NCBI GenBank assembly: GCA_051003195.1 | Contig: JBPCLP010000016.1 | Span: 3,158-67,157 of the forward strand | Source: Candidatus Sumerlaeaceae bacterium | GTDB taxonomy: Bacteria; Sumerlaeota; Sumerlaeia; Sumerlaeales; Sumerlaeaceae | DNA length: 64,000 nucleotides | Direction of reading: 5' to 3' | Part shown: piece after piece, positions 1,163-30,744 of the stretch | Position numbering within the stretch: position 1 is the stretch's first letter | How the letters are laid out: every line of letters starts with the position of its first letter | Position numbers and translations under genes: made by a program | The notes under the pieces: generated by a model | Told to the model about the DNA's origin: nothing | Databases searched by the model: none | The model's input: only the letters and a program-made list of their open reading frames with translations

Positions 1163-1375
1163 ATGGATTACCTGGCAGTAATCGAAGGCGAACCGGGAAA
1201 CTATAGTGCCTGCGTTCCTGACCTCCCCGGGTGCATTACTGTTGGGGAAACTGCATCCGAGATTCGCGACAATATACGCGAAGCTATTGCAGCTTACCTT
1301 GAAGAAACGACCCGCCGAGGCCAGCGGGTTCCCGCGCCGTCGACCACGGCAATCACCGTCTCTGCTGCCGCTTGA
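1163..1375 (+). CDS. HicB-family (UPF0150) type II antitoxin-like protein
   Basis: A 70-aa protein beginning MDYLAVIEGEPGNYSACVPDLPGCITVGETASEIRDNIREAIAAYLEE, which matches the HicB N-terminal domain signature. Its stop overlaps the downstream start (TTGA). Confidence 0.65.
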   Translation: MDYLAVIEGEPGNYSACVPDLPGCITVGETASEIRDNIREAIAAYLEETTRRGQRVPAPSTTAITVSAAA

Positions 1376-2909: not shown

Positions 2910-3298
2910 GTTACGTTACTAAACCCATTCCGGAAAAGAAGCCAGACGTCGCGTTGGTGGAACGGCCGTGGGGTAGCTTTAAACAATACGCATTTAACCA
3001 GGACACCACGGTCAGCTTGATGACAGTGAAGCCGGGTCAGCGGCTTAGTCTGCAGTCGCACATGGGCCGTGCGGAGTTGTGGATCGTGCTGGATGATGAA
3101 GCGCAGGTTCAGGTGGGGGATAACGTGCGCACGTATAACTCGGGTGATGAGATTTGGATTCCGGCGACGGAGAAGCACCGCCTGGCCAATGCTGGTGACA
3201 AGCCGGTGCGCGTGTTGGAAGTCGCATTCGGCAACTGGCAGCAGGAAGACATCACGCGCTACGAGGACGACTACCAGCGCCCGGACCGCGGAGAGTAA
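2906..3298 (+). CDS. Cupin domain protein, mannose-6-phosphate isomerase type-II C-terminal-domain-like
   Basis: It carries the ERPWGSF...LSLQSHMGRAELWIVL...GDEIWIPATEKHRLAN cupin signature. Its start and stop overlap the neighbouring genes. Confidence 0.6.
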   Translation: MSYVTKPIPEKKPDVALVERPWGSFKQYAFNQDTTVSLMTVKPGQRLSLQSHMGRAELWIVLDDEAQVQVGDNVRTYNSGDEIWIPATEKHRLANAGDKPVRVLEVAFGNWQQEDITRYEDDYQRPDRGE

Positions 3299-5055
3299 TG
3301 CGCCAATCCAATTACGACAAGTTTCCGGTTTGCCACATCGATGGTTTTGATGACCAGTGCTGGGCCGGGTGGGAGGAGATTGGGGCGCAGCTGCGCGCAA
3401 CAGTCGATCAACGTGGTACTAAGGCTGTCATTATAGAATGCTACCCGGGAGCTCACGATGATGAACTGCTGCCAGCCCTGAGCCAGCAGTTGAAAGCGGC
3501 TCGGGTAATAAACATGCGAGACCTGCTGCTGCCGCCAGAGGAAATCGCAAAGCTGGTCGAGCGCGATGTCACCGACGATCCAGTCTTTGGCTATCTAAGC
3601 AGCCTCGAACTACTTGATTGTTTTAATACGGAAAAATTCTTTGAACAGCTTCGCGAGGTGCAAAATGGAGCAGGACTAATGCTCGTGTATGGTGCGGGTG
3701 CGTCCTTCTTTAGTTCGGCACAGCCGCAGAGCAACATTCTAGTCTACGCCGACCTCGCCCGCTGGGAACTCCAGATGCGTATGCGGCGCAACGAGATCAG
3801 CAACCTGGGAGCGGACAACGCGGACGAGAAGTGGTCGCTTCAGTATAAGCGCGCATTCTTCGTCGACTGGCGTGTCGCTGACAAACATAAGAAGCACGCG
3901 CTCAAGCGCGCCGACTTCGTCCTGGACACCAACACAGCAGGCCAGCCCAAACTCATTACACGCGAAGCTTTTCGCGGCGCACTCGACCAGGTTTCTTCTC
4001 GCCCATTCCGCGTCGTGCCGTTCTTCGATCCTGCGCCGTGGGGTGGGCAGTGGATGAAAGAAGTCTGCGACCTGGACCGCTCTGCGCCCAACTACGGCTG
4101 GTGCTTCGATTGCGTGCCCGAAGAAAACAGCCTGCTGCTTGGCTTCGGCGGGCACACGGTCGAAATCCCCAGCATCGATCTCGTGTTCTTTCGACCTCGC
4201 GAGCTACTGGGCGAAGCAGTGCACGGCCGCTTCGGAACCGAGTTCCCAATCCGCTTCGACTTCCTCGATACGATGGGCGGCGGTAAGCTGAGCTTCCAGG
4301 TGCATCCGCTCACCGAGTACATCCAGGAAAAGTTCGGAATGCACTACACGCAGGACGAGAGCTATTACATGCTCGATGCCGGCCCGGATGCGTGTGTCTA
4401 TCTCGGGCTGAAAGACGACATTGACCGCAGCGAAATGACGCTGGAGCTGGTGCGCGCCGAAACAGGCGAATGCACCTTCGATGATACAAAGTACGTGAAC
4501 CGGTATCCGGCGAAAAAGCACGACCACTTTCTCATTCCGGCGGGCACTGTGCATTGCTCCGGTGCCGAGGCCATGGTTCTGGAGATCAGCGCCACCCCTT
4601 ACAATTTCACATTCAAAATGTGGGACTGGGGCCGAATGGGACTCGATGGAAAACCGCGACCCGTGCACCTCGCCCATGGCATCGCGAACATCGGGTGGGA
4701 CCGCACCACTGCCTGGGTGCAGCGCGAACTCATCAACACGGTCAGCGAAATCGCTCAAGGCGAAGGCTGGCGCGAAGAGCGCACGGGCCTGCACGAGCGC
4801 GAGTTCATCGAGACCCGCCGCCACTGGTTCACTGGCACCGTACCGCACGACACCAACGGCGGCGTCAACGTGTTGAACCTCGTCGAAGGTGAAGAGGCCA
4901 TCGTAGAAAGTCCCACGGGTGCCTTCGCACCTTTTGTCATCCACTACGCCGAAACCTTCATCGTCCCGGCGGCGGTCGGCCCCTACACCATCCGCCCCCA
5001 CGGCCCCGGCAAGGCGCAGCAGTGCGCTACGCTAAAAGCCTGCGTGCGCAACTGA
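3298..5055 (+). CDS. Class I mannose-6-phosphate isomerase-like protein with extra N-terminal domain
   Basis: It has an LSFQVHP zinc-ligand motif, a downstream ESYYML motif and a later HCSG motif, as in type I PMI. At 585 aa it is larger than ManA. Its start overlaps the upstream stop by 1 nt. Confidence 0.55.
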   Translation: MRQSNYDKFPVCHIDGFDDQCWAGWEEIGAQLRATVDQRGTKAVIIECYPGAHDDELLPALSQQLKAARVINMRDLLLPPEEIAKLVERDVTDDPVFGYLSSLELLDCFNTEKFFEQLREVQNGAGLMLVYGAGASFFSSAQPQSNILVYADLARWELQMRMRRNEISNLGADNADEKWSLQYKRAFFVDWRVADKHKKHALKRADFVLDTNTAGQPKLITREAFRGALDQVSSRPFRVVPFFDPAPWGGQWMKEVCDLDRSAPNYGWCFDCVPEENSLLLGFGGHTVEIPSIDLVFFRPRELLGEAVHGRFGTEFPIRFDFLDTMGGGKLSFQVHPLTEYIQEKFGMHYTQDESYYMLDAGPDACVYLGLKDDIDRSEMTLELVRAETGECTFDDTKYVNRYPAKKHDHFLIPAGTVHCSGAEAMVLEISATPYNFTFKMWDWGRMGLDGKPRPVHLAHGIANIGWDRTTAWVQRELINTVSEIAQGEGWREERTGLHEREFIETRRHWFTGTVPHDTNGGVNVLNLVEGEEAIVESPTGAFAPFVIHYAETFIVPAAVGPYTIRPHGPGKAQQCATLKACVRN

Positions 5056-5338
5056 ACTCGGGGGAAATTCGGGACGGAAATTCGGGACGGGTAACATTTC
5101 ATTCCCAGTTGCGATACTGCTCGAATCCCATCCGTCGTACGCATTGCACTTAAGCTCCACACAGCGACCCGCTGCACGATCAACGAAGTCCGAAGGACGT
5201 CCCTGTGCTTTTAGCCACGTACGCAGTGCGTGGGACCCAATGTTCGCATTCCACTTGAGCTGCCTGCAGCGACCCTTGGAGCCTGGACAAACGACCTCAC
5301 AAAATTGCGGGCGTTAAACTGCCGCGCGATTCACAAAG

Positions 5339-5548
5339 TTACAGGCTGTCATCGTGTAAAATGACAAAACCTCCACCATGAGGTTCCCGTATAAACTCCG
5401 CGTGGTAGTAGGATTTAGACGGGATTCCCAATTCCGCAAAAAGCGCTTTTCTGAGTTCCTGCGCCTGGCCGAATGTAAAGCCCGGCCCGTCTTTTTGGCC
5501 CAGCGGCAAGCGGGTTTGTGAAATCAGCGCCAACATCTGCGCCTTCAC
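5339..5548 (-). CDS. Small hypothetical protein (69 aa)
   Basis: This is an ORF only, with no recognisable family. It abuts an iteron-like repeat, so it may be non-coding. Confidence 0.2.
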   Translation of the reverse strand: MKAQMLALISQTRLPLGQKDGPGFTFGQAQELRKALFAELGIPSKSYYHAEFIREPHGGGFVILHDDSL

Positions 5549-5558
5549 GGAGCCGGCG

Positions 5559-5820
5559 CATGCATAACCCGTCCCCTCAAAACTCGTAACTGAGCTTGTG
5601 TCGAAGCATCCATAATGATAGCAAATTAATTAGTTAATACGTCAACCGTACCCGAATTCGTTCGCCATTTGTCGAAAAACTAGAAGCCGCACTGGGGCGC
5701 CTGCTCAGCCACCAAAGACAGGTCGAAAACCAAAACTCGAGCAGCCCGACGCGACCCCTGACCCCTTTGACCCGCTCAATGCATAACCTGTCCGCTCAAA
5801 GCGTCCCCTCAAAGCGCAAT
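5559..5820. repeat. Iteron-like short direct repeats (ATGCATAACCYGTCCSCTCAAA, three copies of GTCCNCTCAAA) flanked by AT-rich DNA
   Basis: I read the repeats directly at 5560-5590 and 5779-5820. AT-rich blocks lie at 5590-5660 and 5820-5945. Confidence 0.5.
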
Positions 5821-6045
5821 CAATACAACAATCAATACAATATAAGGTGTGATAAGAGATTTATTTGTATCCTGATGGTCAACCCTGCGACGAAACTTTT
5901 CGTCTAAATCAGCGGTTCTATAATTTTATCTCTATATAGGAGTTCAGACGATGTCGATCTTCAGATTTGCATGTGGTATGTGCAGAATCTTATTTGTCGC
6001 CCACCGGCCTTCCAAAGCGAATAAAACTCGAAATGAGAACGCATC

Positions 6046-6777
6046 GTGATGGACCAGATCATTACTATTATTTTCCCGCTGCGCGGAAAATCTCTTTCTA
6101 ACCGCACTTCTTCCCACCCGCAGGAACCCAGTGACAGCTACGCGCGGCTTTATCAGGCACATGGCTGGCCGGCGCGCTCACTCGCTCTTTATCTAACCCT
6201 TAGCCTGGCCGCCGGTTCCGCCTGCGCGGCGGGATGGTCCACCAGCCCGCTAATAAATAATCCCGTATGCACCGCCGCCAATAACCAGGAACGCCCCCAG
6301 ATCGCGACCGACGGAGCGGGAGGCGCCATCATCATATGGCAAGACTTGCGTGGCGGAACCACCACTTACGACATCTACGCCCAGCGCTACGACGCCGCCG
6401 GAGCGCCGCAGTGGACCGCCAACGGCGTAGCCGTCTCCACCGCCGCCAATCACCAGCGCGACCCCCAGATCGCGGCCGACGGAGCGGGAGGCGCCATCAT
6501 CACATGGCACGACGACCGCAGCGGAACAGGTTCCGACATCTACGCCCAGCGCGTTAACGCCGCCGGAGCGCCCCAGTGGACCGCCGACGGCGTAGCCGTA
6601 TCCACCGCCGCCGATGACCAGCTCGACCCCCAGATCGCGGCCGACGCAGCGGGAGGCGCCATCATCACCTGGCGCGACTTGCGCAGCGGAAACTACGACA
6701 TCTACGCCAGTCGACTGGACGGCAGTGGAATGCTTGTGTCCTTTACCTCAGCAGCAGACTGGACGCTGTGGCTGTGA
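6046..6777 (+). CDS. Secreted tandem-repeat protein (3.5 copies of a roughly 57-aa unit), possibly 3'-truncated
   Basis: It has a signal-peptide-like segment, ARSLALYLTLSLAAGSACAAG. The protein repeat is YDIYAQR..AAGAPQWTA.GVAVSTAA..Q.DPQIAADGAGGAIITW.D.RSG. The true start may be an alternative codon downstream of 6046. Confidence 0.55.
   Translation: MMDQIITIIFPLRGKSLSNRTSSHPQEPSDSYARLYQAHGWPARSLALYLTLSLAAGSACAAGWSTSPLINNPVCTAANNQERPQIATDGAGGAIIIWQDLRGGTTTYDIYAQRYDAAGAPQWTANGVAVSTAANHQRDPQIAADGAGGAIITWHDDRSGTGSDIYAQRVNAAGAPQWTADGVAVSTAADDQLDPQIAADAAGGAIITWRDLRSGNYDIYASRLDGSGMLVSFTSAADWTLWL
6292..6777 (+). repeat. 171-bp tandem DNA repeat at about 90% identity (2.8 copies) inside the repeat-protein gene
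   Basis: Units at 6292-6462, 6463-6633 and 6634-6777 are near-identical at the nucleotide level. The third unit diverges and then ends in a stop. Confidence 0.8.
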
Positions 6778-6958
6778 GGTAATGTTGCGAAGGGGCCGTA
6801 GTCATACCGAATAACGGGGCGGTTGACGTTATCACTAATTAATTTGCTAGCGTCAGCAAATACTTCGCGACAAGATCAGTTACGGCGAAGGGTTAAGTGG
6901 CCGGGATTTGGAGTTCGAGGGGACAGGCCCTTCAAAAGCTGACCTTCTGGAGCAGCAG

Positions 6959-7789
6959 TTAGAAAGACTCTGGTTCCTTACATAAGTCGATGATAATATT
7001 GGATTCCTGAAGCCACGGTTTAATCCCAGCCCAAAACCGTTCCATTGCCTGGGTGGTTTCTGTTGGATCGCTGATATTACCCTGAGACACTAACCGGCAT
7101 AGTTGCTTATAACCATCTGGAATACGGGGCAGCGTAGCCGATTCTGTCAGCATGGTGGAAGCACTGGAATACAGAAACCGGTGTGCCAGGCCTAACAGGA
7201 GCGCGCCAGACTTTGTAACGTCACAGGCCAGCGACGGAAGCGAAACACTGTCACAGCTGCCGTCCAGGTTGCGAAGCTTACCCATACCCTCGTACAGGTC
7301 GGCAAGAATGATCTCACGTATGGCAGCAATGAAGAGCGGCTGGGCCGCATTCAACACCGTCTCGCGAAGCTCTTCAAATAATGTCAGTTCCTCAGTCAGG
7401 GGAAGGCACCGGACAAATCGCGAGTGGCTAAGCGACCAATTCAGTGGAACGGAAGCAGCTTTACAGCGCACTACATCCAAGCCATAAATGTTTAACTCCG
7501 CCTTTCCCCAACGGGTTACCCATTCATAGCTAACACTGACCTTTGGCGAGTTGACGACAGCAAACATTTCGAAGTCGGAATAGGGTTTGTCGGTTCCTTT
7601 AGCAAAAGAGCCATAGGCCGCTGCGGCCAGGAGGTTTTCTCCAAGCTCAGCGCGCAGCCGTCTCAGGAGGTGATTCGCAAGTTGTTGTCGATCAGTCTGA
7701 CTGCGAGCCTGCGGACCGGCCCATTGATTTAGAAGAGGATCGTGCAGCTTTAGTTCCACGCCAAATAAGGTCGCGATGCTAATGTGCAT
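6959..7789 (-). CDS. Aminoglycoside 4'-nucleotidyltransferase ANT(4')/kanamycin nucleotidyltransferase family protein
   Basis: It aligns along its full length with KNTase. Matching blocks include YGSFAKGTDKPYSDFEMFAVVN (nucleotidyltransferase GS..D.E motif), SYEWVTRWGKAELNIYG, AQPLFIAAIREIILADLYEGMGKLRNL and SLPSLACDVTKSGALLLGLAHRFLYSSASTMLTE...PDGYKQLCRLVSQGNISD...FWAGIKPW. GC here is lower than in the neighbouring DNA. Confidence 0.8.
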   Translation of the reverse strand: MHISIATLFGVELKLHDPLLNQWAGPQARSQTDRQQLANHLLRRLRAELGENLLAAAAYGSFAKGTDKPYSDFEMFAVVNSPKVSVSYEWVTRWGKAELNIYGLDVVRCKAASVPLNWSLSHSRFVRCLPLTEELTLFEELRETVLNAAQPLFIAAIREIILADLYEGMGKLRNLDGSCDSVSLPSLACDVTKSGALLLGLAHRFLYSSASTMLTESATLPRIPDGYKQLCRLVSQGNISDPTETTQAMERFWAGIKPWLQESNIIIDLCKEPESF

Positions 7790-8026
7790 TGGTAGATAAT
7801 TTCAATTATTTGAGAACGCTGGTGTCCGGTTGATGCGCCGACCCGGTAGACGTTTACTTCATCGTGATCCATGGGCCGATTTAAAGCCGTTGCCTGAGAG
7901 ATACGCAATTGTTTTACGGGAGATTTTTTACGTGCATGTCACCTCACCGAGCGGGGTGAACCGGCGACCGTCCCCTCTGCGACGCTCGACGATCAAACTT
8001 CTCACAGAAGGCACTTAGCCCGCCCC

Positions 8027-8168
8027 TTACCACAGAGGCACAGAGACTCAGAGCTTTCACAGAGGAAAACACTTCTGCAATTTGTAAGAGTTCTTACCAC
8101 GTTATGCACAATAAGCAACTCGGTGCATACTCTGTGGCATACTCTGTGACTCTGTGCCTCTGTGGTAA
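8027..8168. repeat. Large imperfect palindrome with a 19-bp perfect inverted repeat (TTACCACAGAGGCACAGAG) plus multiple CACAGAG/CTCTGTG motif copies and a tandem GCATACTCTGTG x2
   Basis: The left arm is 8027-8053 and the right arm is 8142-8168, within an AT-rich intergenic region. I read it directly. Confidence 0.6.
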
Positions 8169-8479
8169 AATACGTTAATATTTTTCCGAATTTGCTTGTT
8201 GCCCAGCCTGACACGTCGAGGCAAATTCACAGGGACGCGTACCGCGAATGCCCGGGTTGTTCGGTGCGGCACGCGGTGACGCACTCCCAGGGCGGCGTGG
8301 GATTTTTGGTCGCGTGCGTGGTCGTTTCGCCGGGTTGAATGGATCAGACGCGGGGTGCGACCTGGCGCGAGGGTGGTAATTCATTAACCCCCAAGGAAGC
8401 GGAGGAGAAGTTCCGGGGCGGTTGCTCTGCGAACCTGGCAAATTCGCAGGTGATGCGTAAAAGCGGGGGACCCCAACAG

Positions 8480-8914
8480 CTACAATCCCCCGCAAAGGCC
8501 CTGGTACTGCAGAACCAGCGCCGCCAGGGCGATGCCGCAACAGGAGTGCAGGAAGTCCACACGCCGGAATTGCCGGGTTCGGCTACGCAACTGGTGAAGC
8601 TCGTCCAGCAGCGCCGCGATGGCGCACAAAGTAGCAATGATAGCTGCGGGCACGGCATCAAACCTCAGTTGCGCGTGAGCCCACAGGGCGTCGTACAACC
8701 AATACAGTACCAGGAACAATCCACCAAACTCGAAGTAATGTCCGGCTGCGCGGATTTTGCCGTGGTGGCGGTCCAGCAAAGTGAACAGCCGGGGGTGGTT
8801 GCGCATCCGGTCGATGATCGCCTGCGTTTGCGCGCGGCCAAATTTCCCTGTGCCCAGGTACCAGATCACGACGATCATCGCGCCGAGCGCGGCGAGTGGA
8901 AGTAGTGCATGCAT
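8480..8914 (-). CDS. VanZ-like family membrane protein
   Basis: It has four predicted TM segments. It carries the KIRAAGHYFEFGGLFLVLY and LLDELHQLRSRTRQF...D...G motifs that are characteristic of the VanZ family. Confidence 0.55.
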   Translation of the reverse strand: MHALLPLAALGAMIVVIWYLGTGKFGRAQTQAIIDRMRNHPRLFTLLDRHHGKIRAAGHYFEFGGLFLVLYWLYDALWAHAQLRFDAVPAAIIATLCAIAALLDELHQLRSRTRQFRRVDFLHSCCGIALAALVLQYQGLCGGL

Positions 8915-9005
8915 TAACGTGCGATGCGTGCGTGCAGTCTTCGATCATCGCAACGGCGAAATCGTTGAGCAGTTTTTGGCTTAATGGGAGATGCGACGGT
9001 TACAG

Positions 9006-9692
9006 TCAGCGTGCACGGCGCGTTTTGCCGGTTTGCTTGCGCGTATCTGTGGTCGCGGGTTCGACAAACTCGACTTTGATAAGATCTGGATTGCCCGGTG
9101 GGCGCAAGGATGTTGGTTCGGGTTCCGGCGTACTCGTGTCCACGGAAGCGGTTGCGGCCGACTCGTCGCCGTCCGTCCGTGTGCTGCGCCCGATGATCGG
9201 CGGGGGTTCCGGGCCTTGTGCGTTCGTGCGATTTCGCTGAACGTTGTCCATCGCGCGGTCACGCCGGTACGTATGGTTGGAACTGTAGACGTCACCCGTC
9301 AGGTCGGGGATCGGGTTTGGAGCCACGGTATCCACGATTTCCTGCAGTAGATCGTCCGGCCGACGATTCGCACGCTTTGCGGCATCACGTACCCATGAAC
9401 GGAACCGCTCGGGTGCAGCCAGGCGTACGGTCTGGTAGTCGTTCAGCCGGTGCTCATCCACGTAGTCTTTGATGGCGAGCTTCACCATCTCGAATTCCAG
9501 CCCGGGCTCTTTGGTTTTCGCGGCCTCAAGACGCGCTTTCGAAATCTCAGCGTCCAGTGTACCAAGCGAGATGACGCCCTTCGAGTTCAGGTAGGGATCG
9601 ACAATGACGACTTGCCCGTGCGTGACGTGAACTGGGGTGACGAAGATGAGGATGCCAACGGCGCGGAATGCAATGATGTTTGCGCGAATCAT
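9006..9692 (-). CDS. Hypothetical membrane-anchored protein with Pro/Thr/Glu-rich C-terminal tail
   Basis: An internal Met (MIRANIIAFRAVGILIFVTPV, a single TM segment) is the likely start. Its ATGA overlaps the upstream gene stop. No family was recognised. Confidence 0.4.
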   Translation of the reverse strand: MIRANIIAFRAVGILIFVTPVHVTHGQVVIVDPYLNSKGVISLGTLDAEISKARLEAAKTKEPGLEFEMVKLAIKDYVDEHRLNDYQTVRLAAPERFRSWVRDAAKRANRRPDDLLQEIVDTVAPNPIPDLTGDVYSSNHTYRRDRAMDNVQRNRTNAQGPEPPPIIGRSTRTDGDESAATASVDTSTPEPEPTSLRPPGNPDLIKVEFVEPATTDTRKQTGKTRRAR

Positions 9693-10012
9693 GATAGCTT
9701 TTGCTGCTTCGCCGCTTTCATCGCAGCGATCTCCATCTCGATCATCTGGCATACCGGCACTGAGGTCGTTCGGCGCGCGCATGAGCCCAGCGTACCGAGC
9801 CAGTAGGCGGCCGCATCCCGGCATCCCTCACCCTGCACGATGAAACTGCGCGCGCTATCCAGGACGTTGGACGTGCTGGCCGAATCGACCCGGTCGCAGG
9901 CCTCGTGCAACTTTCGAGCGAGTTCCACAAGGTCGCCGTGGACCTCGAATCCGCCGGTACTCACTTTGAGTGCTCGCTCATGGGTTGCCTGAAGATAGTG
10001 TACATCACTCAC
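9689..10012 (-). CDS. Hypothetical protein (107 aa), translationally coupled to the downstream membrane protein
   Basis: This is an ORF whose stop overlaps the start of the 9006..9692 gene. No family was recognised. Confidence 0.35.
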   Translation of the reverse strand: MSDVHYLQATHERALKVSTGGFEVHGDLVELARKLHEACDRVDSASTSNVLDSARSFIVQGEGCRDAAAYWLGTLGSCARRTTSVPVCQMIEMEIAAMKAAKQQKLS

Positions 10013-10355
10013 GCCCTTGTGACGCAGGAAATGTAAGGTAGTCGCGATGCCTTAGGCTTGAGTCTGGCGTGTTTGTGCGACGAAGGCGGGACGTACTCCC
10101 ACACGCATTAACCCATAGACTAGGCATTTTATAGAGGTTATCACATTGAGTTTACACATTTTATGTTGACGTCCCTCCCTTCATGGGAGAGCAAATAATT
10201 TACTCTTTAACCGGTCTAAGAAGTTACCTGCTACCCGAAAGCTGGCAAGGGGTGGTGATCGGATTCAGGGTCAGGGCCATTTCTGGTCGCTGGTGGGCGG
10301 TACACGGAATTACAACTCGGGTGGATACACCCCAACTTTGTTCAGGAGGTCTGAT

Positions 10356-12101
10356 GTGAAATTCAGGCATTTTATCAGTTCAGCAGCGTTGGCGATGGCG
10401 GCAATCGGTTTTGCGCCAGCCGAAGCGAGCGCGGCAACGTTTACGGCCAACCTTGGCGTTGGCTCTTCCAACGTGGGCCCCGGAGGTGATTACCCGGATT
10501 TGGCCTCGGCGGCCGAGGATTTTACAACCGGCTCGCAGGCAGTAACCGGGAACTACACTTTCTTTATCACCGGCAGCACGACCGAAACGCGGCAGATGGC
10601 ATTCGGCAAAGCGACGAACGGGTTCACAATAACCATCAAGCCGGCACCCGCAACGACGGCGACAATTACCTTCGCGTACGGGACACAGAACAACAACGCC
10701 AGCACCTTTGGGCAGACGCAGGGTTGCCCGGGCCAGATTATCGTCGGCCTTAACAACCTGGCAAATACGAACGCTGCAATCGAGGGCGGATTTGTACCCA
10801 CAAACAATTTCGTCGTAGATGGCTCGAATACGAACGGTGGTACCACCCGGGATTTGACACTTCAAACGCCGAATGCCGGGCTTATCAATAGCCGGACCGT
10901 CCACATTCTCGGCAGCAACAACTGCGTCGTGAAGAATTGCAATATCACCAATGGCGCGCAAGGCTCGCCTTCTGTGGGTGTGTTTGTCACTACGGTCAAG
11001 TTACCGATTTCCAGCACCGGTGCTCCTACTACGGTAGCCAGTCCGCTGAATACCGTTATCGATAACAATCTGATATCGGCAAGTGGCAACGGGTCCGCCG
11101 CCGGCATACTGTTTAACGCCTTTTACGATGGGCAGCTCAATACAACGAACTTCCCCGCGGCAGGCAGCGGCGCGGCTGGCTATGTAATCAGCAACAATAC
11201 GGTAGTTGGCCGCAACCGTGGTATTGCATTAAGCCTGGGGCTGAGTGGTACGATCACCAGTAATACAGTCAGTGCGGGTAACAGCTCGTCGGCATACAGT
11301 GGTGTTGGCACATCGGGCATCGCACATATCAACAGCTTTAACAGCACCGGCTGGACCATCGATATTACGAAGAACTGGATTACGTCGCTTGCCGGAACCA
11401 ACACGGGTTCGGGGCTTGGCGCAATTGCGCTGGGTGTTGCGGCACAGGGCGCCGGCACCTACAACGTGTCCAACAACATGATGGCGGGCTTCACGAACGG
11501 TGCCGGCAATAATCATCATCACGGAATTTTCTGCCGAGCAAACGCTTCGGATTATAATCTGCGGCACAACTCGATCAACGTCTCGAACACGAGCGCCACG
11601 GCTGCGACGGCCGATTTTGTTGCGGCGATCCTTATCGAATCGACTGCAAGAACCGGCATCTCGCGAGTACACAACAACCTGGTCCGACTGGCGCAGGATA
11701 ATGGGATCGGGATCAGTCACGTTACCAATGACACCACTAAACTCATCACCGATGGCAATGACATCGCGCTGGTTGGTGCTACTACAAACTTCGGCCGATT
11801 TGGCGGCACCAATGCTGCAACGCTCGCAGCGTGGAAATTGGCCACCAACAACCAGGAAGCTCTTGGTCAAACCGTTGATCCAGCGGCTACAACGGGTTCG
11901 AAGTGGGTTTCAGCTGACGCAATCGATCTGCATTTTGTACCGATTCACACTGTTCCAGTCGGGATCAGCGGTGGCGTTCCAGTTGCAACAACGGGAATCG
12001 CAACCGACATCGACGGTCAGCCGCGCAGCGCTTCTGCTCCGCTGCCAGGAGCCGACGAAGTCATCGCAGGCACAGGTGTCCTGGAGTGGCAGTTGTTCTA
12101 A
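10356..12101 (+). CDS. Secreted Ser/Thr/Asn/Gly-rich right-handed beta-helix repeat protein (adhesin or pectate-lyase-fold like)
   Basis: A GTG start at 10356 follows AGGAGG at 10345-10350. The signal peptide is KFRHFISSAALAMAAIGFAPAEASA. The composition is repetitive (NNxxxG/T-rich). Confidence 0.55.
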   Translation: MKFRHFISSAALAMAAIGFAPAEASAATFTANLGVGSSNVGPGGDYPDLASAAEDFTTGSQAVTGNYTFFITGSTTETRQMAFGKATNGFTITIKPAPATTATITFAYGTQNNNASTFGQTQGCPGQIIVGLNNLANTNAAIEGGFVPTNNFVVDGSNTNGGTTRDLTLQTPNAGLINSRTVHILGSNNCVVKNCNITNGAQGSPSVGVFVTTVKLPISSTGAPTTVASPLNTVIDNNLISASGNGSAAGILFNAFYDGQLNTTNFPAAGSGAAGYVISNNTVVGRNRGIALSLGLSGTITSNTVSAGNSSSAYSGVGTSGIAHINSFNSTGWTIDITKNWITSLAGTNTGSGLGAIALGVAAQGAGTYNVSNNMMAGFTNGAGNNHHHGIFCRANASDYNLRHNSINVSNTSATAATADFVAAILIESTARTGISRVHNNLVRLAQDNGIGISHVTNDTTKLITDGNDIALVGATTNFGRFGGTNAATLAAWKLATNNQEALGQTVDPAATTGSKWVSADAIDLHFVPIHTVPVGISGGVPVATTGIATDIDGQPRSASAPLPGADEVIAGTGVLEWQLF

Positions 12102-23903: not shown

Positions 23904-26900
23904 ATGTCCATGGCGCCCGCGCAAAGTTATACGCTAACCAGCATCGTTGATAACCGTGGTGAAAACACGCTCTGCAATGCCATCGATCAAATTACGGAGA
24001 ACGGACGCGAGCTGTGGATTGCCACCGCCTTCTTCTCACTCGATGCCCTTAATATGGTTGGCAAGAATCTGCAATCCGCTGAGCGCATTCGTCTTCTCTT
24101 CGGCGACGACGCCAGCGCGAAACAGCGTAACGCGCTGCTTGCCGCGATGCGTAACCGTTCCGATGCCGACCTGCTGCGCCAGCGCGATGTGGACGCGCTG
24201 CTTCAGGGGCTTCGGCGCGCCTTACAGCTCATCAACGACGGAAAGCTCGAAGCCCGCGTGTACACACGCGAAAAGTTTCACGCTAAGCTGTACATTTCCC
24301 ACCGTACCGGCTACCCGCCAGCATCCAGTATTGTAGGCAGTGGCAATTTTACGCGCTCGGGCCTGACACAGAATATCGAGCTCAACGTCCGCCTTATCGA
24401 GGACCAGACAGAGAAGCTGATTTCCTGGTACCAGGATCGCTGGGACGAAGCAGAAGAGGACGACGTAACTCTTGTCTTAAAAGCCGAAATTGAACGCCAG
24501 ATTCGCCTCTACGCTCCGTACGCCATTTATCTTAAAGCGCTGCTTACATGGGGAGACTATGTACAGGGCCGCGATCCCTTAAAGCAGCTTCAGATCTTAC
24601 CATTGCTTGACCCGCACCAGGAGCACGCATACCGGCAGGCGCTTCGCATCCTCCAGCGGGAACCCGGCGTCATGATTTGCGACGGCGTTGGCCTTGGTAA
24701 ATCCTTCGTCGCCCTGGCTCTGATGGAACACTGGCTGTCCGAAGGATCGCGTGTACTGCTGGTTGCCCCCAAGGCTATCCTGAAAAGCTCGTGGGAAGGT
24801 TACCTGAGGAGGTATCTATCCAGGTACAGCCGCGGTTTCACAAACCTCCACTGTAAGCCCATGACCTGGTTTGGCTTCGACCCTGAAGAGGATTCTAACG
24901 ACCTTGAGCAACTAGTCGAATACGCCACCCAGGCGGACGTGATCATTATCGACGAGAGTCACAATTTTAGAAATTCTGCAAGCCAGCGGTACGAGAACCT
25001 TTACCGCGTTGTTGCCCCAAACGAGCGCGGCAGAAAGAAAATCGTCCTTCTGACGGCCACTCCAATCAACACGCGTTACGAGGATCTATCCAGCCAGTTT
25101 CAGATCCTCACCCATGACACGGGCGCAATTTCAGGCATCCCCCGGCTGCAAATCAATAAGCTGGCGCGTAACAAAGATCGCGAGATCATGAAGAAGGGCG
25201 AGCCGCTGGAGCAAGGCGATTTCCTTGACCTTCAAGGCGTCATGCTGGAAGACCTGCTTGGCATCGCTCTCAAGGCTGTCGCCATTCAACGCTCCCGTAA
25301 AACCTGCAGGGGACTTGCTGATGCCGCAGGGCGACACCTGCGTTTTCCTAAACGACAGAAGCCGACAGAAGTATCGTACGAACTTGGTTACGGGCACGAG
25401 TCCCTGATTAAGGAAGCCAGCCTTCGCTTCAAAGAGTTGGGCGCATACATTGCAGCCTATCGCGACGAAGTGACGGAGGCTTCTGAAAAAGATCGTGCAG
25501 TAAAGAAGACCTTCGGTAAGCAACCGCAGCACGGACTCAAATTCAGCGGCTACCTTCCGAATTTGTTCTCACGCAATAAGGCGATTTCAAATCGCCAGGC
25601 GCAGGTGGAAGCATTCCTGGCAGCCATGGTGTTCGTGAACGTGATGAAACAGCTGGAAAGTTCAACGCCCGCGTTTCAGTCCATCATCGAGTCTCTGGGT
25701 CGTGGCCTTGCGTTGCGGCTGCGCCATTTCTGTGGGGACGAAGAAAAGGTGCAGGCTGCACTGCGCCGACATGAAAAGTGGGTCAAGCTACCCGCAAACG
25801 TTGAGCCCGACGATCAAATTTCAGATGAACCTGAAGACGCCGTCGCGGATGAAGCCAGCGGTGGTGAAACAGACGATTATATCTGCCGCGAAGAACGTCG
25901 CGCGATTAAGCGTCTCAAGGCCCTCGGTTTCAGCAATGAAACACACGACGTCGCGCGGTGGCGAAACGATATTCTTAATGATCTCGAACACCTGCAAAGC
26001 ATTCACGATAAATGTCTTCATGCACGCGAAGAGCAGGACGCGAAGCTTGTCGAAATCTCAAAGCACGTTAGGGAGCAGCGTTCGCTCGGACGCAAAGTGC
26101 TGATCTTCAGCCAGAGCCGGCTCACGGCGCAATATATCCAGTCCGGGCTTGAAGCAATCCTCGGCGAAAAAGTCGCAATGGTCACCTCGGAGATCGGCGG
26201 CGATATACGCGCACGCATCCTGAACGCTTTTTCGCCGCATTATAATGATTTGCACACGCGTAATATGAAGCCGCTCGACGAATTGAACATCCTTGTTTCG
26301 ACGGACGTGCTTGCCGAAGGCGTCAACCTGCAGGAAGCCGGCTGCGTTCTAAATTACGATCTGCACTGGAACCCAACCCGGTTGATCCAGCGGATCGGTC
26401 GCGTAGACCGTCGCCTCAAACAGGGTGAACCCGATCACGAGTTCGACATTCTGAACGTCTTCCCGCCAAAAGCAATCGACGAAGTGATCTCCCTGGTCGA
26501 CACCGTTGAGCATCGCAAGCGCAAGATCAGTCACCTGCTTGGCATTGATGTTTCATTCTTCAAGGCGACCGATGAGGAAGACACTCTCAAAGAGTTCAAC
26601 CGGCTTTACGAGGGCGAAGAGAGTCCCCGAGACAAGCAGCTCATCCAGTATGTGCGCCAGGTGGAGTTAAGCAGCGAGCAGAAGGCAATCGCTGAAGCAC
26701 TCCCGCCAGGTGCGCTCGGCGTCTGGTCCGGGGCTCCGTGTGATGGCGTGTTTGCCCTGTTTTTAATTGTGTGGCGCAAACCTGAGGCTGCCCCTGAGCA
26801 CTGGAATCCGGAACAGACCATACCCGAAGCCGATCTGAAGCGCTTCCGCTCACTTATAGGAGCCCCCAAATTGCTGCTTGGCCGTTCAGGACCCGAAATT

Positions 26901-27092
26901 GAAACCGACGCTCCTTCCGTGCTTGAGCTACTCGCGAAGGTCAGCCCGCAAGAAAAGAGCGGGTTCCCTCGCGACATTGAAGCGCTTCAAAAGAATCTCA
27001 AGCGCCTGCGTTCCGCTGCGCTTTCCTCCATTCCCGACCGTACGCAGAACGTAACCGTGGAGCTCGTGTGCTGGATGGAACTTCAAACCTGA
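23904..27092 (+). CDS. Fused phospholipase-D-like nuclease + SNF2-family (SF2) helicase
   Basis: The PLD HKD motif is HAKLYISHRTGY..IVGSGNFTRSGL. Helicase motif I is ICDGVGLGKS, motif II is IIIDESHNFRN, and motif VI is NPTRLIQRIGRVDRR. Confidence 0.85.
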   Translation: MSMAPAQSYTLTSIVDNRGENTLCNAIDQITENGRELWIATAFFSLDALNMVGKNLQSAERIRLLFGDDASAKQRNALLAAMRNRSDADLLRQRDVDALLQGLRRALQLINDGKLEARVYTREKFHAKLYISHRTGYPPASSIVGSGNFTRSGLTQNIELNVRLIEDQTEKLISWYQDRWDEAEEDDVTLVLKAEIERQIRLYAPYAIYLKALLTWGDYVQGRDPLKQLQILPLLDPHQEHAYRQALRILQREPGVMICDGVGLGKSFVALALMEHWLSEGSRVLLVAPKAILKSSWEGYLRRYLSRYSRGFTNLHCKPMTWFGFDPEEDSNDLEQLVEYATQADVIIIDESHNFRNSASQRYENLYRVVAPNERGRKKIVLLTATPINTRYEDLSSQFQILTHDTGAISGIPRLQINKLARNKDREIMKKGEPLEQGDFLDLQGVMLEDLLGIALKAVAIQRSRKTCRGLADAAGRHLRFPKRQKPTEVSYELGYGHESLIKEASLRFKELGAYIAAYRDEVTEASEKDRAVKKTFGKQPQHGLKFSGYLPNLFSRNKAISNRQAQVEAFLAAMVFVNVMKQLESSTPAFQSIIESLGRGLALRLRHFCGDEEKVQAALRRHEKWVKLPANVEPDDQISDEPEDAVADEASGGETDDYICREERRAIKRLKALGFSNETHDVARWRNDILNDLEHLQSIHDKCLHAREEQDAKLVEISKHVREQRSLGRKVLIFSQSRLTAQYIQSGLEAILGEKVAMVTSEIGGDIRARILNAFSPHYNDLHTRNMKPLDELNILVSTDVLAEGVNLQEAGCVLNYDLHWNPTRLIQRIGRVDRRLKQGEPDHEFDILNVFPPKAIDEVISLVDTVEHRKRKISHLLGIDVSFFKATDEEDTLKEFNRLYEGEESPRDKQLIQYVRQVELSSEQKAIAEALPPGALGVWSGAPCDGVFALFLIVWRKPEAAPEHWNPEQTIPEADLKRFRSLIGAPKLLLGRSGPEIETDAPSVLELLAKVSPQEKSGFPRDIEALQKNLKRLRSAALSSIPDRTQNVTVELVCWMELQT

Positions 27093-30000
27093 TGATTGAC
27101 CCGCAACTACTTCACGACGTACACGACCGCGATTCGCTGGTAGCACTACTCAAGAAAAGCGAAACCCAGCAGGGGCTCGGCTGGCCGGTGGATCCCGACG
27201 CGCCGTTCCAGTTTGAACCAGAGATCGCAAAAGGCATCAAAAGCGGTTTAAACGTAGCTATTTCGCGATTGGTTCCGGCCTCTTCGGAAGATAAACACCT
27301 GGTGCTACTGGCGGAATTCCCACAACCGTATGTCCGACGCGACCTGCGCGAACTCCTCGCCTCCCTGCGCAAACATATTCGGGACACCAAGCGCTTCGCC
27401 GACCACACCGGAATCGGCGATACCGTATTCATTGTCGCAGGCCCGGCATACGACGACGTGCGCTTTGTTCTGTTCGAGGAACGTGAACGCCGGCTCCCGC
27501 GCATCCGCTCCTTCGGCTGGAGTCGCGCGCACATTGGGCGCACCGTTCTTACGCACAACCTGGGGCGTCTCGTATGGAGCAGCCGTGAGAAATGGGAATC
27601 TGCCTGGGACGTCGAGGCGCTCACCGATGAATTCTACCAGGAGTTCGTCAAAGTTTTCGACGCGGTAAAAGCCGCAACCACTCATCCCGGCAACAACGAA
27701 AAAAAACATGCCTATGTCCAGCAGCTCCTCAATCGCATGCTGTTTATCGCATTTATCGAACGCATGGGCTGGCTCAAGCTGCCGTGGCCTGACGCTACCA
27801 AACCTACCACCGACTATATGCACGCGCTCTGGATACGGCACCAGCAGGAAGAGGATCCGGCGGCATACTACAAAAGTGTCGTAGAACCATCCCTCGCCCC
27901 GATATCCTTCAACTCCGTTTTAGGTAAACTCTTCTTCGATGGGCTAAATCGCGCCGGCGGGATTGCCCACGGCCACACGCTATACAAGCTTTTGGGTGAC
28001 GTGCCATATCTTGACGGCGGACTGTTCGAAGAGGAAGCCACGCTCGACGTTCCTGGCGTGTCAGTGCAAGATGAAGTCTTCGATCTGATACTCGGCGATA
28101 GACGCCCTGGCTTTGACGGCGGCCTCTTCCGCCGCTTTAACTTTACCGTTACGGAATCCACACCGCTCGACCAGGAAGTCGCAGTCGATCCGGAAATGCT
28201 TGGCAAAATTTTTGAAAGTATTATTTTGGATGTGGAACGTCACAGCACGGGCACGTATTACACACCACGTCCTATTGTCGAGTTCATGGTAAACGAGGTG
28301 CTCAAGGACTACCTTACCGAAAAAGGGTTAGCAGCGGATAAAGCCGCACTCCTCGTGGATGAGGACAACGTGGAGTCCGACGAGTTGTCATTCAAGCCTT
28401 CCGAGATGCAGGATACCTTGAACTTGCTGTTTGAAGTGCGTGCCGTTGACCCTGCCTGCGGATCGGGCGCGTATCTACTTACGCTACTGCAGCGGCTGTT
28501 CGAACTGGTGGACCGGCTGGAAGTCGTGCACGACAAAGGACGCAATACTGACCCGCGACATTTTTATAATACAAAACTGCGGCTGTTGCACCGATGCATA
28601 TACGGTGTCGACATCAGCGAAATTGCCATCCGTATTGCGCGCCTACGCCTATGGTTGTCGCTGGTCATCGAAAACAAAGGGATCATACCCGAGCCGCTGC
28701 CGAGTTTCGACTTTCTGATCATGTGCGGTGATTCACTGGCGTCGCCAGTGGAACAAAACGAGGCAGGATTAGCGTATCCTCATAATACGATTCAGGACTA
28801 TACGGTCCTTAAACAGCGATGGTTCCACCCATCCAACAATACACGTCCAGAACGAGAAGTTCTTACCCGCAAACGTGCCGAAATAGCAGCTGCATTTGAG
28901 CATGAGCTCGCAAGCAGTAGGTTCAGAGCCGCTGCGCAAAATCCATTCGATTGGGAGGTCGAGTTTGCCGAAGTCTTTGATCCGAACTTTGACAATTCAC
29001 CGGGGTTCGATATCATCTTAGCAAATCCCCCCTACGGTATTGCCGTCGAGTCACAATACCGAGTCTCGATCAACAGCAAGGAATCTTACGCAGCATTCTT
29101 AGCATTGGCTCACGCACTTAGTACGCCCGGCGGAACGTGCTCGTTTATCGTACCCACCTCTTGGCAAACTGGAGAACACTTTTTCCAATTTAGAAGTTGG
29201 TTGTTCGGAAACAACATCGTGCATTCAGTGGTCAATCTTCCCTATGATATGTTTGCAGCTGCCTATGTTGATACGTGTATTGTTACATTCCGTGCCAGAG
29301 CGCGAACAGTATCCGGTAGAGAGATATCGATAGCTGTTCTTCCAAAGCATGCGGAGTATAGGCGGGAGGATATTGCTTCAGCTCTACGGAAGTTACCCTT
29401 TAAAGCCATTGAGTCAGATTCCCGCCTTCGAATCGTCGTAAATCCAGACGCCGTCGACTTGATAACTAAGGTCAGTGTAGGTTCGCGCTTAGATAGTAAG
29501 GCAGTCGTAAAGCGCGGGATCGAGGCCTACAACTATAAAATTGCCCTGAAGCCGACCACGCCATCCATGTTGCCTTTTTATGAAGGTACGGTGCGACGCT
29601 ATTACGCCGGTTCGCTCATGGAAGACAAATGGGTCCAGCCAAAACCTAGGGAGGTTGAGCTGCACTGCGGGGAGCGCATTCTTTTAAGACGTTTGGTCAG
29701 CCGTTCAAATCGGCTGATGGCAGCCCGAGTTAACTTCGATGCAGTCGTTAAAAAAGATCTGTATATAGTTAGAACGGAAGGTACGGAGATGTTGCTATTC
29801 CTGCTTGGATTGCTGAATTCGTCATTGTGGTCCTACTTGTATTTGTCACGTTCAGCGTCTGCTCAGAAGGATGACTTCCGTCAAGTGACACTCGAAGGTA
29901 TCCGCGGATTACCTCTGCCAGAGAGCAGAGCTCAGAGGGGTGCAATAGCGGAACTTGTCTGCGCGATCGAGCGCAGAGTAGCTGCAAATGAGTCATATGA

Positions 30001-30100
30001 CCTGCTTGATGCGGAACTCGACACGCACATCTACGCTTTGTATGGAGTCTCCAATGAAGAACAAAGCGCCGTACTAAAATATCTGGATACGCGTGGATAA
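27092..30100 (+). CDS. PglX/Eco57I-family N6-adenine DNA methyltransferase with C-terminal target-recognition region
   Basis: Motif I is VDPACGSGAYLL and motif IV is ILANPPYG. Upstream helical-domain blocks (LLNRMLFIAFIERMGWL, DPEMLGKIFESI, GTYYTPRPIV) are typical of MmeI/PglX-type enzymes. The start ATG at 27092 overlaps the helicase stop (TGATG); a GTG at 27068 is an alternative. Confidence 0.85.
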   Translation: MIDPQLLHDVHDRDSLVALLKKSETQQGLGWPVDPDAPFQFEPEIAKGIKSGLNVAISRLVPASSEDKHLVLLAEFPQPYVRRDLRELLASLRKHIRDTKRFADHTGIGDTVFIVAGPAYDDVRFVLFEERERRLPRIRSFGWSRAHIGRTVLTHNLGRLVWSSREKWESAWDVEALTDEFYQEFVKVFDAVKAATTHPGNNEKKHAYVQQLLNRMLFIAFIERMGWLKLPWPDATKPTTDYMHALWIRHQQEEDPAAYYKSVVEPSLAPISFNSVLGKLFFDGLNRAGGIAHGHTLYKLLGDVPYLDGGLFEEEATLDVPGVSVQDEVFDLILGDRRPGFDGGLFRRFNFTVTESTPLDQEVAVDPEMLGKIFESIILDVERHSTGTYYTPRPIVEFMVNEVLKDYLTEKGLAADKAALLVDEDNVESDELSFKPSEMQDTLNLLFEVRAVDPACGSGAYLLTLLQRLFELVDRLEVVHDKGRNTDPRHFYNTKLRLLHRCIYGVDISEIAIRIARLRLWLSLVIENKGIIPEPLPSFDFLIMCGDSLASPVEQNEAGLAYPHNTIQDYTVLKQRWFHPSNNTRPEREVLTRKRAEIAAAFEHELASSRFRAAAQNPFDWEVEFAEVFDPNFDNSPGFDIILANPPYGIAVESQYRVSINSKESYAAFLALAHALSTPGGTCSFIVPTSWQTGEHFFQFRSWLFGNNIVHSVVNLPYDMFAAAYVDTCIVTFRARARTVSGREISIAVLPKHAEYRREDIASALRKLPFKAIESDSRLRIVVNPDAVDLITKVSVGSRLDSKAVVKRGIEAYNYKIALKPTTPSMLPFYEGTVRRYYAGSLMEDKWVQPKPREVELHCGERILLRRLVSRSNRLMAARVNFDAVVKKDLYIVRTEGTEMLLFLLGLLNSSLWSYLYLSRSASAQKDDFRQVTLEGIRGLPLPESRAQRGAIAELVCAIERRVAANESYDLLDAELDTHIYALYGVSNEEQSAVLKYLDTRG

Positions 30101-30153
30101 GAATGACCGGTCGTGATTTACAGGACTGGCTCAGCCAGCGCGAGCGGTAGCGG

Positions 30154-30744
30154 ATGGCCGGAAACAACATATTCTGCCTCGAAGGTGATTGGTCAGGCAA
30201 CCTGAAGAAGCCAAATTCCGTTCGGCCGATACTGGAACTGCTTTCCAGGACGGAACCGTATGCTCCAAAGCATATCTATCGTGGACTGGGTACCGTAGAA
30301 GAATTTGAATACTACCTGCGCGAGTGGAGGAAAAAGCAGTACCGTGACTACCCCATTCTTTATCTCGCGTTCCACGGCGACTGCGGGGAGCTTTGCGTTG
30401 AGGCAACGCGTGGTGGGAGTATACGCGTTAGCCTGGATGATCTGGAGACGCTACTGCAAGGCAAGTGCCACCGGCGTATGATTCATATAGGCGCCTGCGA
30501 TTCCGCAATGTGGCATGGCAACAGGGTGCAGACGTTTCTTAGAACAACCGGTGCTGTGGCGCTGATGGGCTACGAAGCCCAGGTCGACTGGACGGTCTCG
30601 ACTGCTTTTGAGCTACTTCTATTTGACTGCATCCAAGAATGGTCGATGACTAAGCACGGTGCTAACGCGATAAAGAAGCGCATGAAGGCCCACTACCCGG
30701 ACATGGTAAGAAAGCTTGGGTTTAAGGTCGTGGTACGTAAGTAA
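30154..30744 (+). CDS. Hypothetical protein with clan-CD (caspase-like) His-Gly/Ala-Cys dyad pattern
   Basis: The hydrophobic strand ILYLAFHGDCG and a later strand IHIGACDSA fit the caspase/gingipain catalytic-dyad spacing. It is co-directional with, and 53 nt downstream of, the MTase gene. Confidence 0.35.
   Translation: MAGNNIFCLEGDWSGNLKKPNSVRPILELLSRTEPYAPKHIYRGLGTVEEFEYYLREWRKKQYRDYPILYLAFHGDCGELCVEATRGGSIRVSLDDLETLLQGKCHRRMIHIGACDSAMWHGNRVQTFLRTTGAVALMGYEAQVDWTVSTAFELLLFDCIQEWSMTKHGANAIKKRMKAHYPDMVRKLGFKVVVRK

Follow-up and report, generated by a model that had tools for sequence, protein, structure and literature searches.

The 64-kb stretch of DNA analysed here, called the window in what follows, contains on its minus strand an intact ORF of 276 aa, with an ATG start and a TAA stop, that spans exactly positions 6959-7789 (Table 1). 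Its product is identical to the NCBI protein MGI8905923.1, which lies on a 101-kb contig and bears the name [quoted passage not shown]. A Logan contig of 1,081 bp, assembled from SRR33880242, matches window positions 6912-7992 at 100%, the ORF included.

The upstream part of the window holds a sugar-utilisation cluster made up of an MFS sugar transporter, a BadF-type ATPase, a cupin-type glucose-6-phosphate isomerase and a 585-aa protein, the last of which gave no family match. This cluster is common, in varying part, to loci from many phyla. It is followed by about 1 kb of low-GC non-coding DNA and then by the gene of a secreted repeat protein (6046-6777), which is convergent with the nucleotidyltransferase gene. 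On the other side, a 690-nt spacer separates the nucleotidyltransferase gene from a VanZ-family gene, and this is followed by the gene of a 272-aa protein of unknown function. Two repeat structures lie nearby. The arms of an imperfect inverted repeat bracket the neighbouring repeat-protein gene and not the nucleotidyltransferase gene, while a self-contained hairpin upstream of the ORF folds at -73 kcal/mol (z = -7.3). An Rfam scan of positions 5000-10400 at E <= 1 returned nothing, and hence no riboswitch, leader or RNA family for either the hairpin or the inverted repeat.

Table 1. Features of the nucleotidyltransferase locus, in window coordinates. Bit scores are followed by the cut-off of the model.
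Feature	Position	Strand	Remarks
KNTase / ANT(4')-I-family nucleotidyltransferase ORF	6959..7789	-	276 aa, ATG-TAA, = MGI8905923.1
N-terminal extension, residues 1-24	7718..7789	-	absent from KNTase and most homologues; predicted disordered, pLDDT 47-52
N-terminal Pol-beta-type nucleotidyltransferase domain, residues 25-136	7382..7717	-	Pfam, alignment, model
G60-S61	7607-7612	-	in nucleotidyltransferase domain, alignment to KNTase
D72-x-E74	7568-7576	-	in nucleotidyltransferase domain, alignment to KNTase
E89, K96, E98 (= KNTase E67, K74, E76)	7496-7525	-	in nucleotidyltransferase domain
C-terminal helical KNTase_C domain, residues 137-265	6995..7381	-	Pfam, model
E167 (= KNTase E145, general base)	7289-7291	-	in KNTase_C domain
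K171 (= KNTase K149)	7277-7279	-	in KNTase_C domain
VanZ-family gene	8480-8914	same strand as nucleotidyltransferase gene	NF037970, 33.1 bits (cut-off 20)
Right arm of ~76-nt imperfect inverted repeat	6808..6884	.	partner 5585-5660; 75 nt past ORF stop codon
Very stable self-contained hairpin	8015..8180	.	27-nt arms, 93% complementary, CACAGAG-type 8-mer arrays, ~240 nt upstream of ORF start

A phmmer search of the PDB matched the product to kanamycin nucleotidyltransferase (KNTase; ANT(4')-Ia, PDB 1KNY) at E = 1.2e-46, with residues 25-271 placed on KNTase 3-249. The alignment covers 247 residues without a single gap, 80 of which are identical (32.4%). The C-terminal half was recognised by Pfam KNTase_C (PF07827) with 106.4 bits (E = 1.3e-30, gathering threshold 26.4 bits), over profile positions 3-131 of 132. 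The N-terminal half gave weak matches to the generic NTP_transf_2 and Polbeta models, as expected for a domain that is conserved at the level of motifs. The collinear two-domain architecture, with the Pol-beta nucleotidyltransferase domain ahead of the KNTase_C helical domain, is present at full length, and it is the same in ANT(4')-Ia (aadD/aadD1; PDB 1KNY, 1KAN, 6NMK, 6UN8).

The AlphaFold2 model, built as a monomer from a 49-sequence alignment, had a mean pLDDT of 93.2, with disorder limited to residues 1-20. In KNTase the active sites are reportedly shared across the dimer interface. The best PDB matches of the model were all KNTase entries, with a target-normalised TM score of 0.94 and an rmsd of 1.6-1.7 A over about 250 columns, so that the predicted fold is that of KNTase. 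The next structural family was ANT(4')-IIb at TM 0.56-0.59. The initial annotation had claimed block-by-block homology to KNTase/ANT(4')-Ia, a GS...D.E motif and a C-terminal helical domain; all three were recovered, the motif as G60-S61...D72-x-E74 and the helical domain in the Pfam match, the model and the structural match alike.

Because the alignment is gapless, residues of the product are numbered as in KNTase plus 22. With KNTase numbering, the positions kept are G38, S39, S49, D50, E52, E67, K74, E76, E145, K149, R151 and N152, and those changed are R42 (to K), E63 (to S), E141 (to A) and E142 (to D). The nucleotide- and Mg-binding motif G38-S39...D50-x-E52 is present, and 119-123 of 125 family members have the conserved residues there. 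The general base E145, its back-up E76 and K149 are also present, as E167, E98 and K171. Among the full-length family members, E67, K74, E76 and E145 are conserved in 96-117 of 125, and the active-site positions of the product as a whole in 96-123 of 125. The 4'-OH of kanamycin is activated by E145 as the general base, and E76 can stand in for E145, since activity was lost solely in the E76Q/E145Q double mutant (mutagenesis cited in PMC6361787). More broadly, the product agrees with the family consensus at 18/18 columns with a conservation of 90% or more and at 35/36 columns with one of 80% or more, the one miss being L to I. With these consensus residues kept, the gene looks functional rather than decayed.

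The 5' end of the gene is less regular. Within the first 40 codons the possible start codons are the ATG at codon 1 and a GTG at codon 11, with no others, and homologues begin at about residue 20-26 of the product, so that the N-terminus is longer by 12-24 residues. No convincing Shine-Dalgarno-like sequence was found in front of the ATG. Promoter and terminator consensus scans at the ORF gave matches no commoner than in shuffled sequence, and the sole promoter-like match overlaps the start codon. Such an upstream region, together with the unusual, predicted-disordered extension and the atypical codon usage described below, could belong to a silent or decaying gene, that is, a remnant that is unexpressed or inactive. 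We hold this to be quite improbable: the ORF is intact and full length, the conserved columns are retained, the model is confident (pLDDT 93) and the identical sequence in the Logan assembly of SRR33880242 represents an independent recovery.

The ORF product has a net charge of -4 (pI 5.8), compared with -19 for KNTase and a family mean of -8.7 (sd 7.4). Of the acidic-pocket positions, E67 and E76 are kept, as is K74, whereas E142 is replaced by D, E141 by A and E63 by S; E63 and E141 are residues that we take to line the pocket in the KNTase structure 1KNY. It is a real possibility, one that falls short of likely, that the protein has the same fold and the same nucleotidyl-transfer chemistry and that its physiological substrate is not a clinical aminoglycoside. 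The candidates would be an endogenous or environmental amino sugar or a polyamine-like metabolite, and the gene would then be a proto-resistance or housekeeping gene conferring little or no resistance. The far less acidic protein and the changes at E63, E141 and E142 speak for such a substrate, as do the score under the curated ANT(4')-I cut-off and the position outside the validated clade (see below for both) and the occurrence of family members as single genes in unrelated chromosomal contexts. There is also a precedent for shifted specificity among divergent ANTs: EanT-1, predicted to be ANT(6)-like, confers resistance to kanamycin, while ANT(6)-I enzymes are described as giving resistance to streptomycin and not to kanamycin (PMC12990473). 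On the other hand, the catalytic residues and the contacts to ring A of kanamycin (E67, K74, E76 and E145) are all kept, and kanamycin is hydrogen-bonded in KNTase by E67, E76 and E142 (PMC6361787). The gapless alignment also implies pocket-forming loops of equal length, which argues against a different substrate.

Placement within the family bears on the same question. The NCBIfam model ANT_4p_I (NF033061), an ANT(4')-I equivalog with a curated cut-off of 350 bits, matched the product over positions 2-247 of 253 at E = 4e-60, with a score of 203.5 bits that is below the cut-off. The allele-specific ANT(4')-Ia model gave 149.5 bits against a cut-off of 500. For comparison, proteins of Paenibacillus, Brevibacillus and Lysinibacillus named "ANT(4')-I family" scored 433, 445 and 390 bits on NF033061, and seven other homologues that were tested scored 192-294 bits. 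In neighbour-joining trees, KNTase formed a clade with the Lysinibacillus, Paenibacillus and Brevibacillus proteins (74% bootstrap), and the product grouped with the KNTase/Bacillales proteins in a clade of at most 10 leaves in 0/100 bootstraps. Its weakly supported sister (40% bootstrap) was the metagenomic protein P0005. Judged by sequence, the product is a divergent member of the KNTase_C family that lies outside the curated ANT(4')-I resistance equivalog.

Relatives were collected by an exhaustive HMMER scan and a profile search. The family is small, with 228 clusters at 50% identity that reach E <= 1e-3 among 1.84 billion representatives. The nearest relative found in the exhaustive scan of these representatives, P0002, is 42% identical, and among about 15 billion proteins none exceeded this value. 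Similarly, a word-indexed search of 5.8 billion proteins returned the product itself as its sole match. The relatives that carry a name are from Paenibacillus, Brevibacillus, Lysinibacillus, Geomicrobium, Bacillus and Leptolyngbya, the remainder being mostly metagenomic proteins without a name. Plasmids yielded no closer relative: all 196 plasmid matches were of the aadD1 type, at about 32% identity and in every case below 60%. In the literature we found no characterised KNTase-family member from the subclade of the product or from Sumerlaeota; a paper on Sumerlaeota MAGs names kanamycin solely among the antibiotics that multidrug resistance proteins cover. The protein is a new, very divergent KNTase_C member, for which a generic family annotation already exists at NCBI.

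The assignment to an aminoglycoside-resistance family made in the initial annotation is robust at the level of the family, but the product stays at 203.5 bits where 350 are needed and falls outside the Ia/Ib clade. The accompanying wording, "environmental reservoir variant or a proto-resistance gene", is therefore the appropriate level of claim.

Chromosomal ANT(4') homologues are well known in environmental Bacillales. ANT(4')-Ib (aadD2, Bacillus/Shouchella clausii) and the Paenibacillus, Brevibacillus and Lysinibacillus proteins resemble the present gene in being single chromosomal genes of environmental bacteria and in belonging to the same family. They differ from it in that the latter three score 390-445 bits on NF033061 and fall into one clade with KNTase, which the product, at 203.5 bits, never joins. 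The aadD2 gene of B. clausii is described as intrinsic and non-transferable, with a host-like GC content (PMC5615088), whereas the GC content of the present gene is below that of its host. ANT(4')-Ia itself is plasmid-borne in Bacillota, on staphylococcal and Bacillus plasmids, while the present gene is chromosomal in an uncultured Sumerlaeota bacterium. Apart from the charge and pocket differences given above, the product differs from ANT(4')-Ia by its 12-24 additional N-terminal residues; it resembles it in the G-S...D-x-E motif, the E145/E76 bases, K149, E67 and K74, and in the predicted fold.

The metagenomic KNTase_C proteins (P0002, P0005, the P0014 cluster and the Leptolyngbya protein P0164) stand at the same subfamily level as the product. 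They score 190-294 bits on NF033061, have 250-265 aa and are encoded by single chromosomal genes without conserved neighbours. All are at most 42% identical to the product, and most are more acidic (-8 to -19). Unlike the present gene, the loci examined have the GC content of their host. P0005 adjoins a MacB/FtsX transporter and P0014 lies within a patch of glyoxalase, GST and AHSA1 genes; both are single chromosomal genes with unrelated neighbours. In tblastx comparisons of these two loci with the window, the sole match was the KNTase homologue, and nothing in their contexts pointed to an operon or to the taxonomy of the host. Neither the architecture of the present ORF nor its context holds anything unexpected.

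Two more distant systems were also compared. ANT(4')-IIb of Pseudomonas aeruginosa (PDB 4EBJ, 4EBK) shares the named activity, and its nucleotidyltransferase and helical-domain fold is distantly similar. It belongs to a different family, with 18-20% identity to the product in the structural alignment, and 4EBJ and 4EBK were absent from the phmmer matches at E <= 10. The two-gene MNT/HEPN pairs ("bipartite aminoglycoside nucleotidyltransferases", type VII MntA/HepT) have domain types that correspond to the two halves of KNTase (PMC7005997). They consist of two separate genes, whereas the product unites both domains in a single polypeptide, just as KNTase does.

The latter resemblance raises the question of a fused MNT-HEPN-type module, kin to type VII toxin-antitoxin and anti-phage systems and acting on a protein or nucleic-acid target rather than a small molecule. 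Weak signals in this direction were obtained: the MntA antitoxin model matched at 16.5 bits (E = 0.006, cut-off 60), two PADLOC candidate families matched at 21 and 16 bits, and the predicted structure had distant matches (TM 0.25-0.5) to Hailong HalB and to MNT/HEPN complexes. These matches are limited to the generic nucleotidyltransferase motif and lie far below threshold, and the full-length KNTase match is about 40 orders of magnitude better. Moreover, no HEPN partner gene is adjacent and no defence gene lies next door, the neighbours being the repeat protein and the VanZ-family protein. Such a module is very improbable. A role in a defence system was rejected, the PADLOC matches being weak and covering the nucleotidyltransferase motif alone.

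The composition of the gene was compared with that of the genes of the 64-kb window. Its GC content is 51.7%, against a mean of 57.9% (sd 3.2) for the 35 other ORFs (z = -1.96). The deficit is concentrated at third codon positions, where a GC3 of 53.8% contrasts with 66.8% (z = -2.36, second lowest of 36 ORFs). The codon-usage distance to the pooled genes, 0.384, ranks third of 36 (z = 3.0) and exceeds all 1000 resamplings in which the protein sequence was kept. The tetranucleotide deviation, by contrast, is unremarkable, at the 83rd percentile among equal-sized windows. The lower GC relative to the neighbours that had been noted in the initial annotation is real. The "high-GC" genome is GC-rich, but moderately so (56.8% for the window). 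Likewise, the "AT-rich repeat" flanks do contain genuine repeats and are below average in GC, but at 48-51% GC they are not AT-rich, and the repeats do not bracket the gene. Of GC and tetranucleotide deviation, the two measures named there as a check, only the first departs from the background.

The horizontal acquisition that had been suggested on these grounds is therefore upheld in part. In its favour are the atypical GC3 and codon usage, the patchy distribution of the family and the lack of a close relative of the product; in addition, the homologues in two other hosts (loci L082 and L083) are no lower in GC than their surroundings. Against it stand the tetranucleotides and the missing vehicle. 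No integrase, transposase or relaxase was found within about 10 kb on either side of the gene, there is no tRNA anywhere in the 64-kb window, and no convincing repeat pair or target-site repeats bracket the gene. The hallmarks of a mobile resistance determinant (mobility genes, a tRNA/att site, bracketing repeats and near-identical mobile copies) are absent.

We also searched for a related genome that would allow a presence/absence comparison, and none was found among scans with the 585-, 602- and 883-aa neighbours. The contig scan with the upstream 585-aa protein gave at least 80 loci from many phyla at 56-64% identity, and among those listed neither the downstream genes nor a KNTase homologue occurred. 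The 602-aa neighbour has relatives at 35-56% identity, which lay in unrelated contexts, and the metagenome contig scan with the 883-aa neighbour yielded one irrelevant fragment. A donor cannot be named, because the relatives found on plasmids are without exception aadD1, at about 32% identity. From the atypical composition and the absence of close relatives, the gene is most likely an accessory gene that was horizontally acquired at some time. A foreign origin is plausible, perhaps somewhat more likely than not; no mobile-element vehicle is visible now, and the transfer is not recent in any demonstrable sense.

Taken together, the ORF is intact and collinear with KNTase, its product is predicted to fold in the same way, and the catalytic residues are retained along with most of the substrate contacts. 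Weighed against these are the score below the cut-off, the position outside the clade, the charge of -4 and the changed E63, E141 and E142. On balance we favour, with reservation, a functional, divergent KNTase_C / ANT(4')-I-like protein that is chromosomal in Candidatus Sumerlaeota and was most likely once acquired horizontally. It likely adenylylates aminoglycosides, and its most likely function, by analogy with ANT(4')-Ia, would be that of a Mg-ATP-dependent O-adenylyltransferase acting on them.

The mechanism proposed by homology with ANT(4')-Ia is as follows. The enzyme would be a homodimer, as KNTases are homodimers of two-domain subunits (PMC7005997), and Mg-ATP would be bound by the N-terminal Pol-beta-type domain through G60-S61, D72 and E74. 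The putative aminoglycoside substrate would be held by E89, K96, E98 and D164. E167, backed by E98, would then deprotonate a sugar hydroxyl of the aminoglycoside, presumably the one at position 4'. AMP would be transferred to this hydroxyl with release of pyrophosphate, and the modified drug would no longer bind the ribosome. Expression of the gene is likewise presumed, as is any resistance phenotype.

It is also conceivable that the KNTase-family subclade outside the Bacillales ANT(4')-Ia/Ib group, the present protein included, does not consist of aminoglycoside-resistance enzymes and nucleotidylates a different, less cationic natural substrate. This broader proposal is favoured by the weakly acidic surface (-4 versus -19) and by the loss of the pocket acids E63 and E141; we regard it as rather unlikely. 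If it were true, the clinical ANT(4')-I enzymes would have branched off, as specialists, from a rare and older family with a metabolic or detoxifying role.

The practical significance of the gene is small, because it shows no link to a mobile element, is a singleton and resembles uncharacterised KNTase_C proteins that are already annotated. Standard resistance-gene callers would miss the ORF, since it lies below the NCBIfam/AMRFinder-type cut-off. If the enzyme is active, it would add the candidate phylum Sumerlaeota to the known hosts of ANT(4')-like aminoglycoside modification, and the environmental resistome would gain a very divergent member, whose identity is at most 42% to anything sequenced and 32% to the clinical enzyme. 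Its main value would lie in testing how far the function of the ANT(4')-I family extends.

At residue 102 (codon 7484-7486), which corresponds to the site of the classic thermostabilising mutation D80Y of kanamycin nucleotidyltransferase (KNTase), the native residue of the nucleotidyltransferase ORF is a tyrosine. Tyrosine is also the commonest residue at the D80-equivalent position, being found in 21 of the 125 aligned full-length family members.

The VanZ-family gene shares its strand with the nucleotidyltransferase gene, from which it is separated by 690 nt on the upstream side, and its product scored 33.1 bits with NF037970 (cut-off 20) and 29.4 with the Pfam VanZ model (cut-off 30.1). Two "resistance-associated" families thus adjoin here; the length of the spacer and the hairpin that it bears argue against an operon.

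The convergent neighbour encodes a repeat protein with a hydrophobic N-terminal segment, in which a 165-nt (55-aa) unit of the form PQIAxDGxGGAIIxW...DIYAQR is repeated in tandem about 2.6 times. Its codon usage is the most atypical among the window ORFs, and its GC content (64%) is at the top of the 36 ORFs examined. The protein gave only weak matches, to a PDIAV-motif lipoprotein model (38.5 bits, cut-off 90) and to a beta-propeller repeat model. This gene and its low-GC leader make up the 1.15-kb segment between the arms of an imperfect inverted repeat, detected as two adjoining arm pairs of 42 nt (81% complementary) and 25 nt (84%). Both arms carry the perfect 12-nt palindrome CTAATTAATTAG inside a 16-mer whose only two sites within the window are the arms themselves. 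No recombinase gene was found near the inverted repeat. The repeat may serve as a paired operator or promoter, or else its arms may mark where an old insertion begins and ends.

The 318-aa ORF exceeds the nucleotidyltransferase gene as a compositional outlier: its GC is the lowest of the window, and its codon usage ranks second for atypicality. It matched nothing in Pfam or PADLOC. Lower GC was also observed in an apparent restriction/defence module, which encodes a 1062-aa protein with PLD-nuclease and SNF2/ResIII helicase domains, then a 1010-aa Eco57I/MmeI-type N6-methyltransferase with a TaqI-like specificity domain, followed by a DUF6642 protein.

Coordinates and properties of the features mapped in the window
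Feature	Position	Strand	Properties
CACAGAG array	1122-1144 (element listed as 1118-1144)
HicB-like antitoxin family ORF	1163-1375	+	70 aa; PF15919, 50 bits
585-aa protein	3298-5055	+
Perfect tandem repeat	5063-5090		13-nt unit, 2.2 copies
Imperfect inverted repeat	5585-5660 and 6808-6884		arms of ~76 nt
Repeat protein	6046-6777	+	243 aa
CACAGAG hairpin	8015-8180		-73 kcal/mol, z = -7.3 (very stable)
VanZ-family membrane protein	8480-8914	-
ORF of 318 aa	19167-20123	-	GC 48.5%, GC3 46%
Apparent restriction/defence module	23904-30744	+	GC 52-55%

The 585-aa protein is an unclassified, widely shared sugar-metabolism protein. It had no Pfam or NCBIfam match, and among the matches listed its relatives (56-64% identity) occur in at least 80 genomes from widely separated phyla; Planctomycetota, Verrucomicrobiota, Acidobacteriota, Bacteroidota and Vibrio are among the hosts. 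Many of these listed relatives are encoded close to a gene for an MFS sugar transporter or a cupin-type glucose-6-phosphate isomerase homologue. Directly after the stop codon of the gene lies a tandem repeat of GGAAATTCGGGAC. Further upstream, genes for an MFS transporter and a BadF-type ATPase flank the HicB-like antitoxin ORF.

The hairpin is built from the 8-mer CACAGAG(N) in inverted arrays. The window holds six copies of the sequence CTCTGTGNCTCTGTG, where chance alone would give 0.01, and all six sit either in the hairpin or in the array directly upstream of the HicB-like ORF. In the Sumerlaeaceae genome, the CACAGAG-type sequence may represent a dispersed element with a regulatory role or of the REP-like kind.
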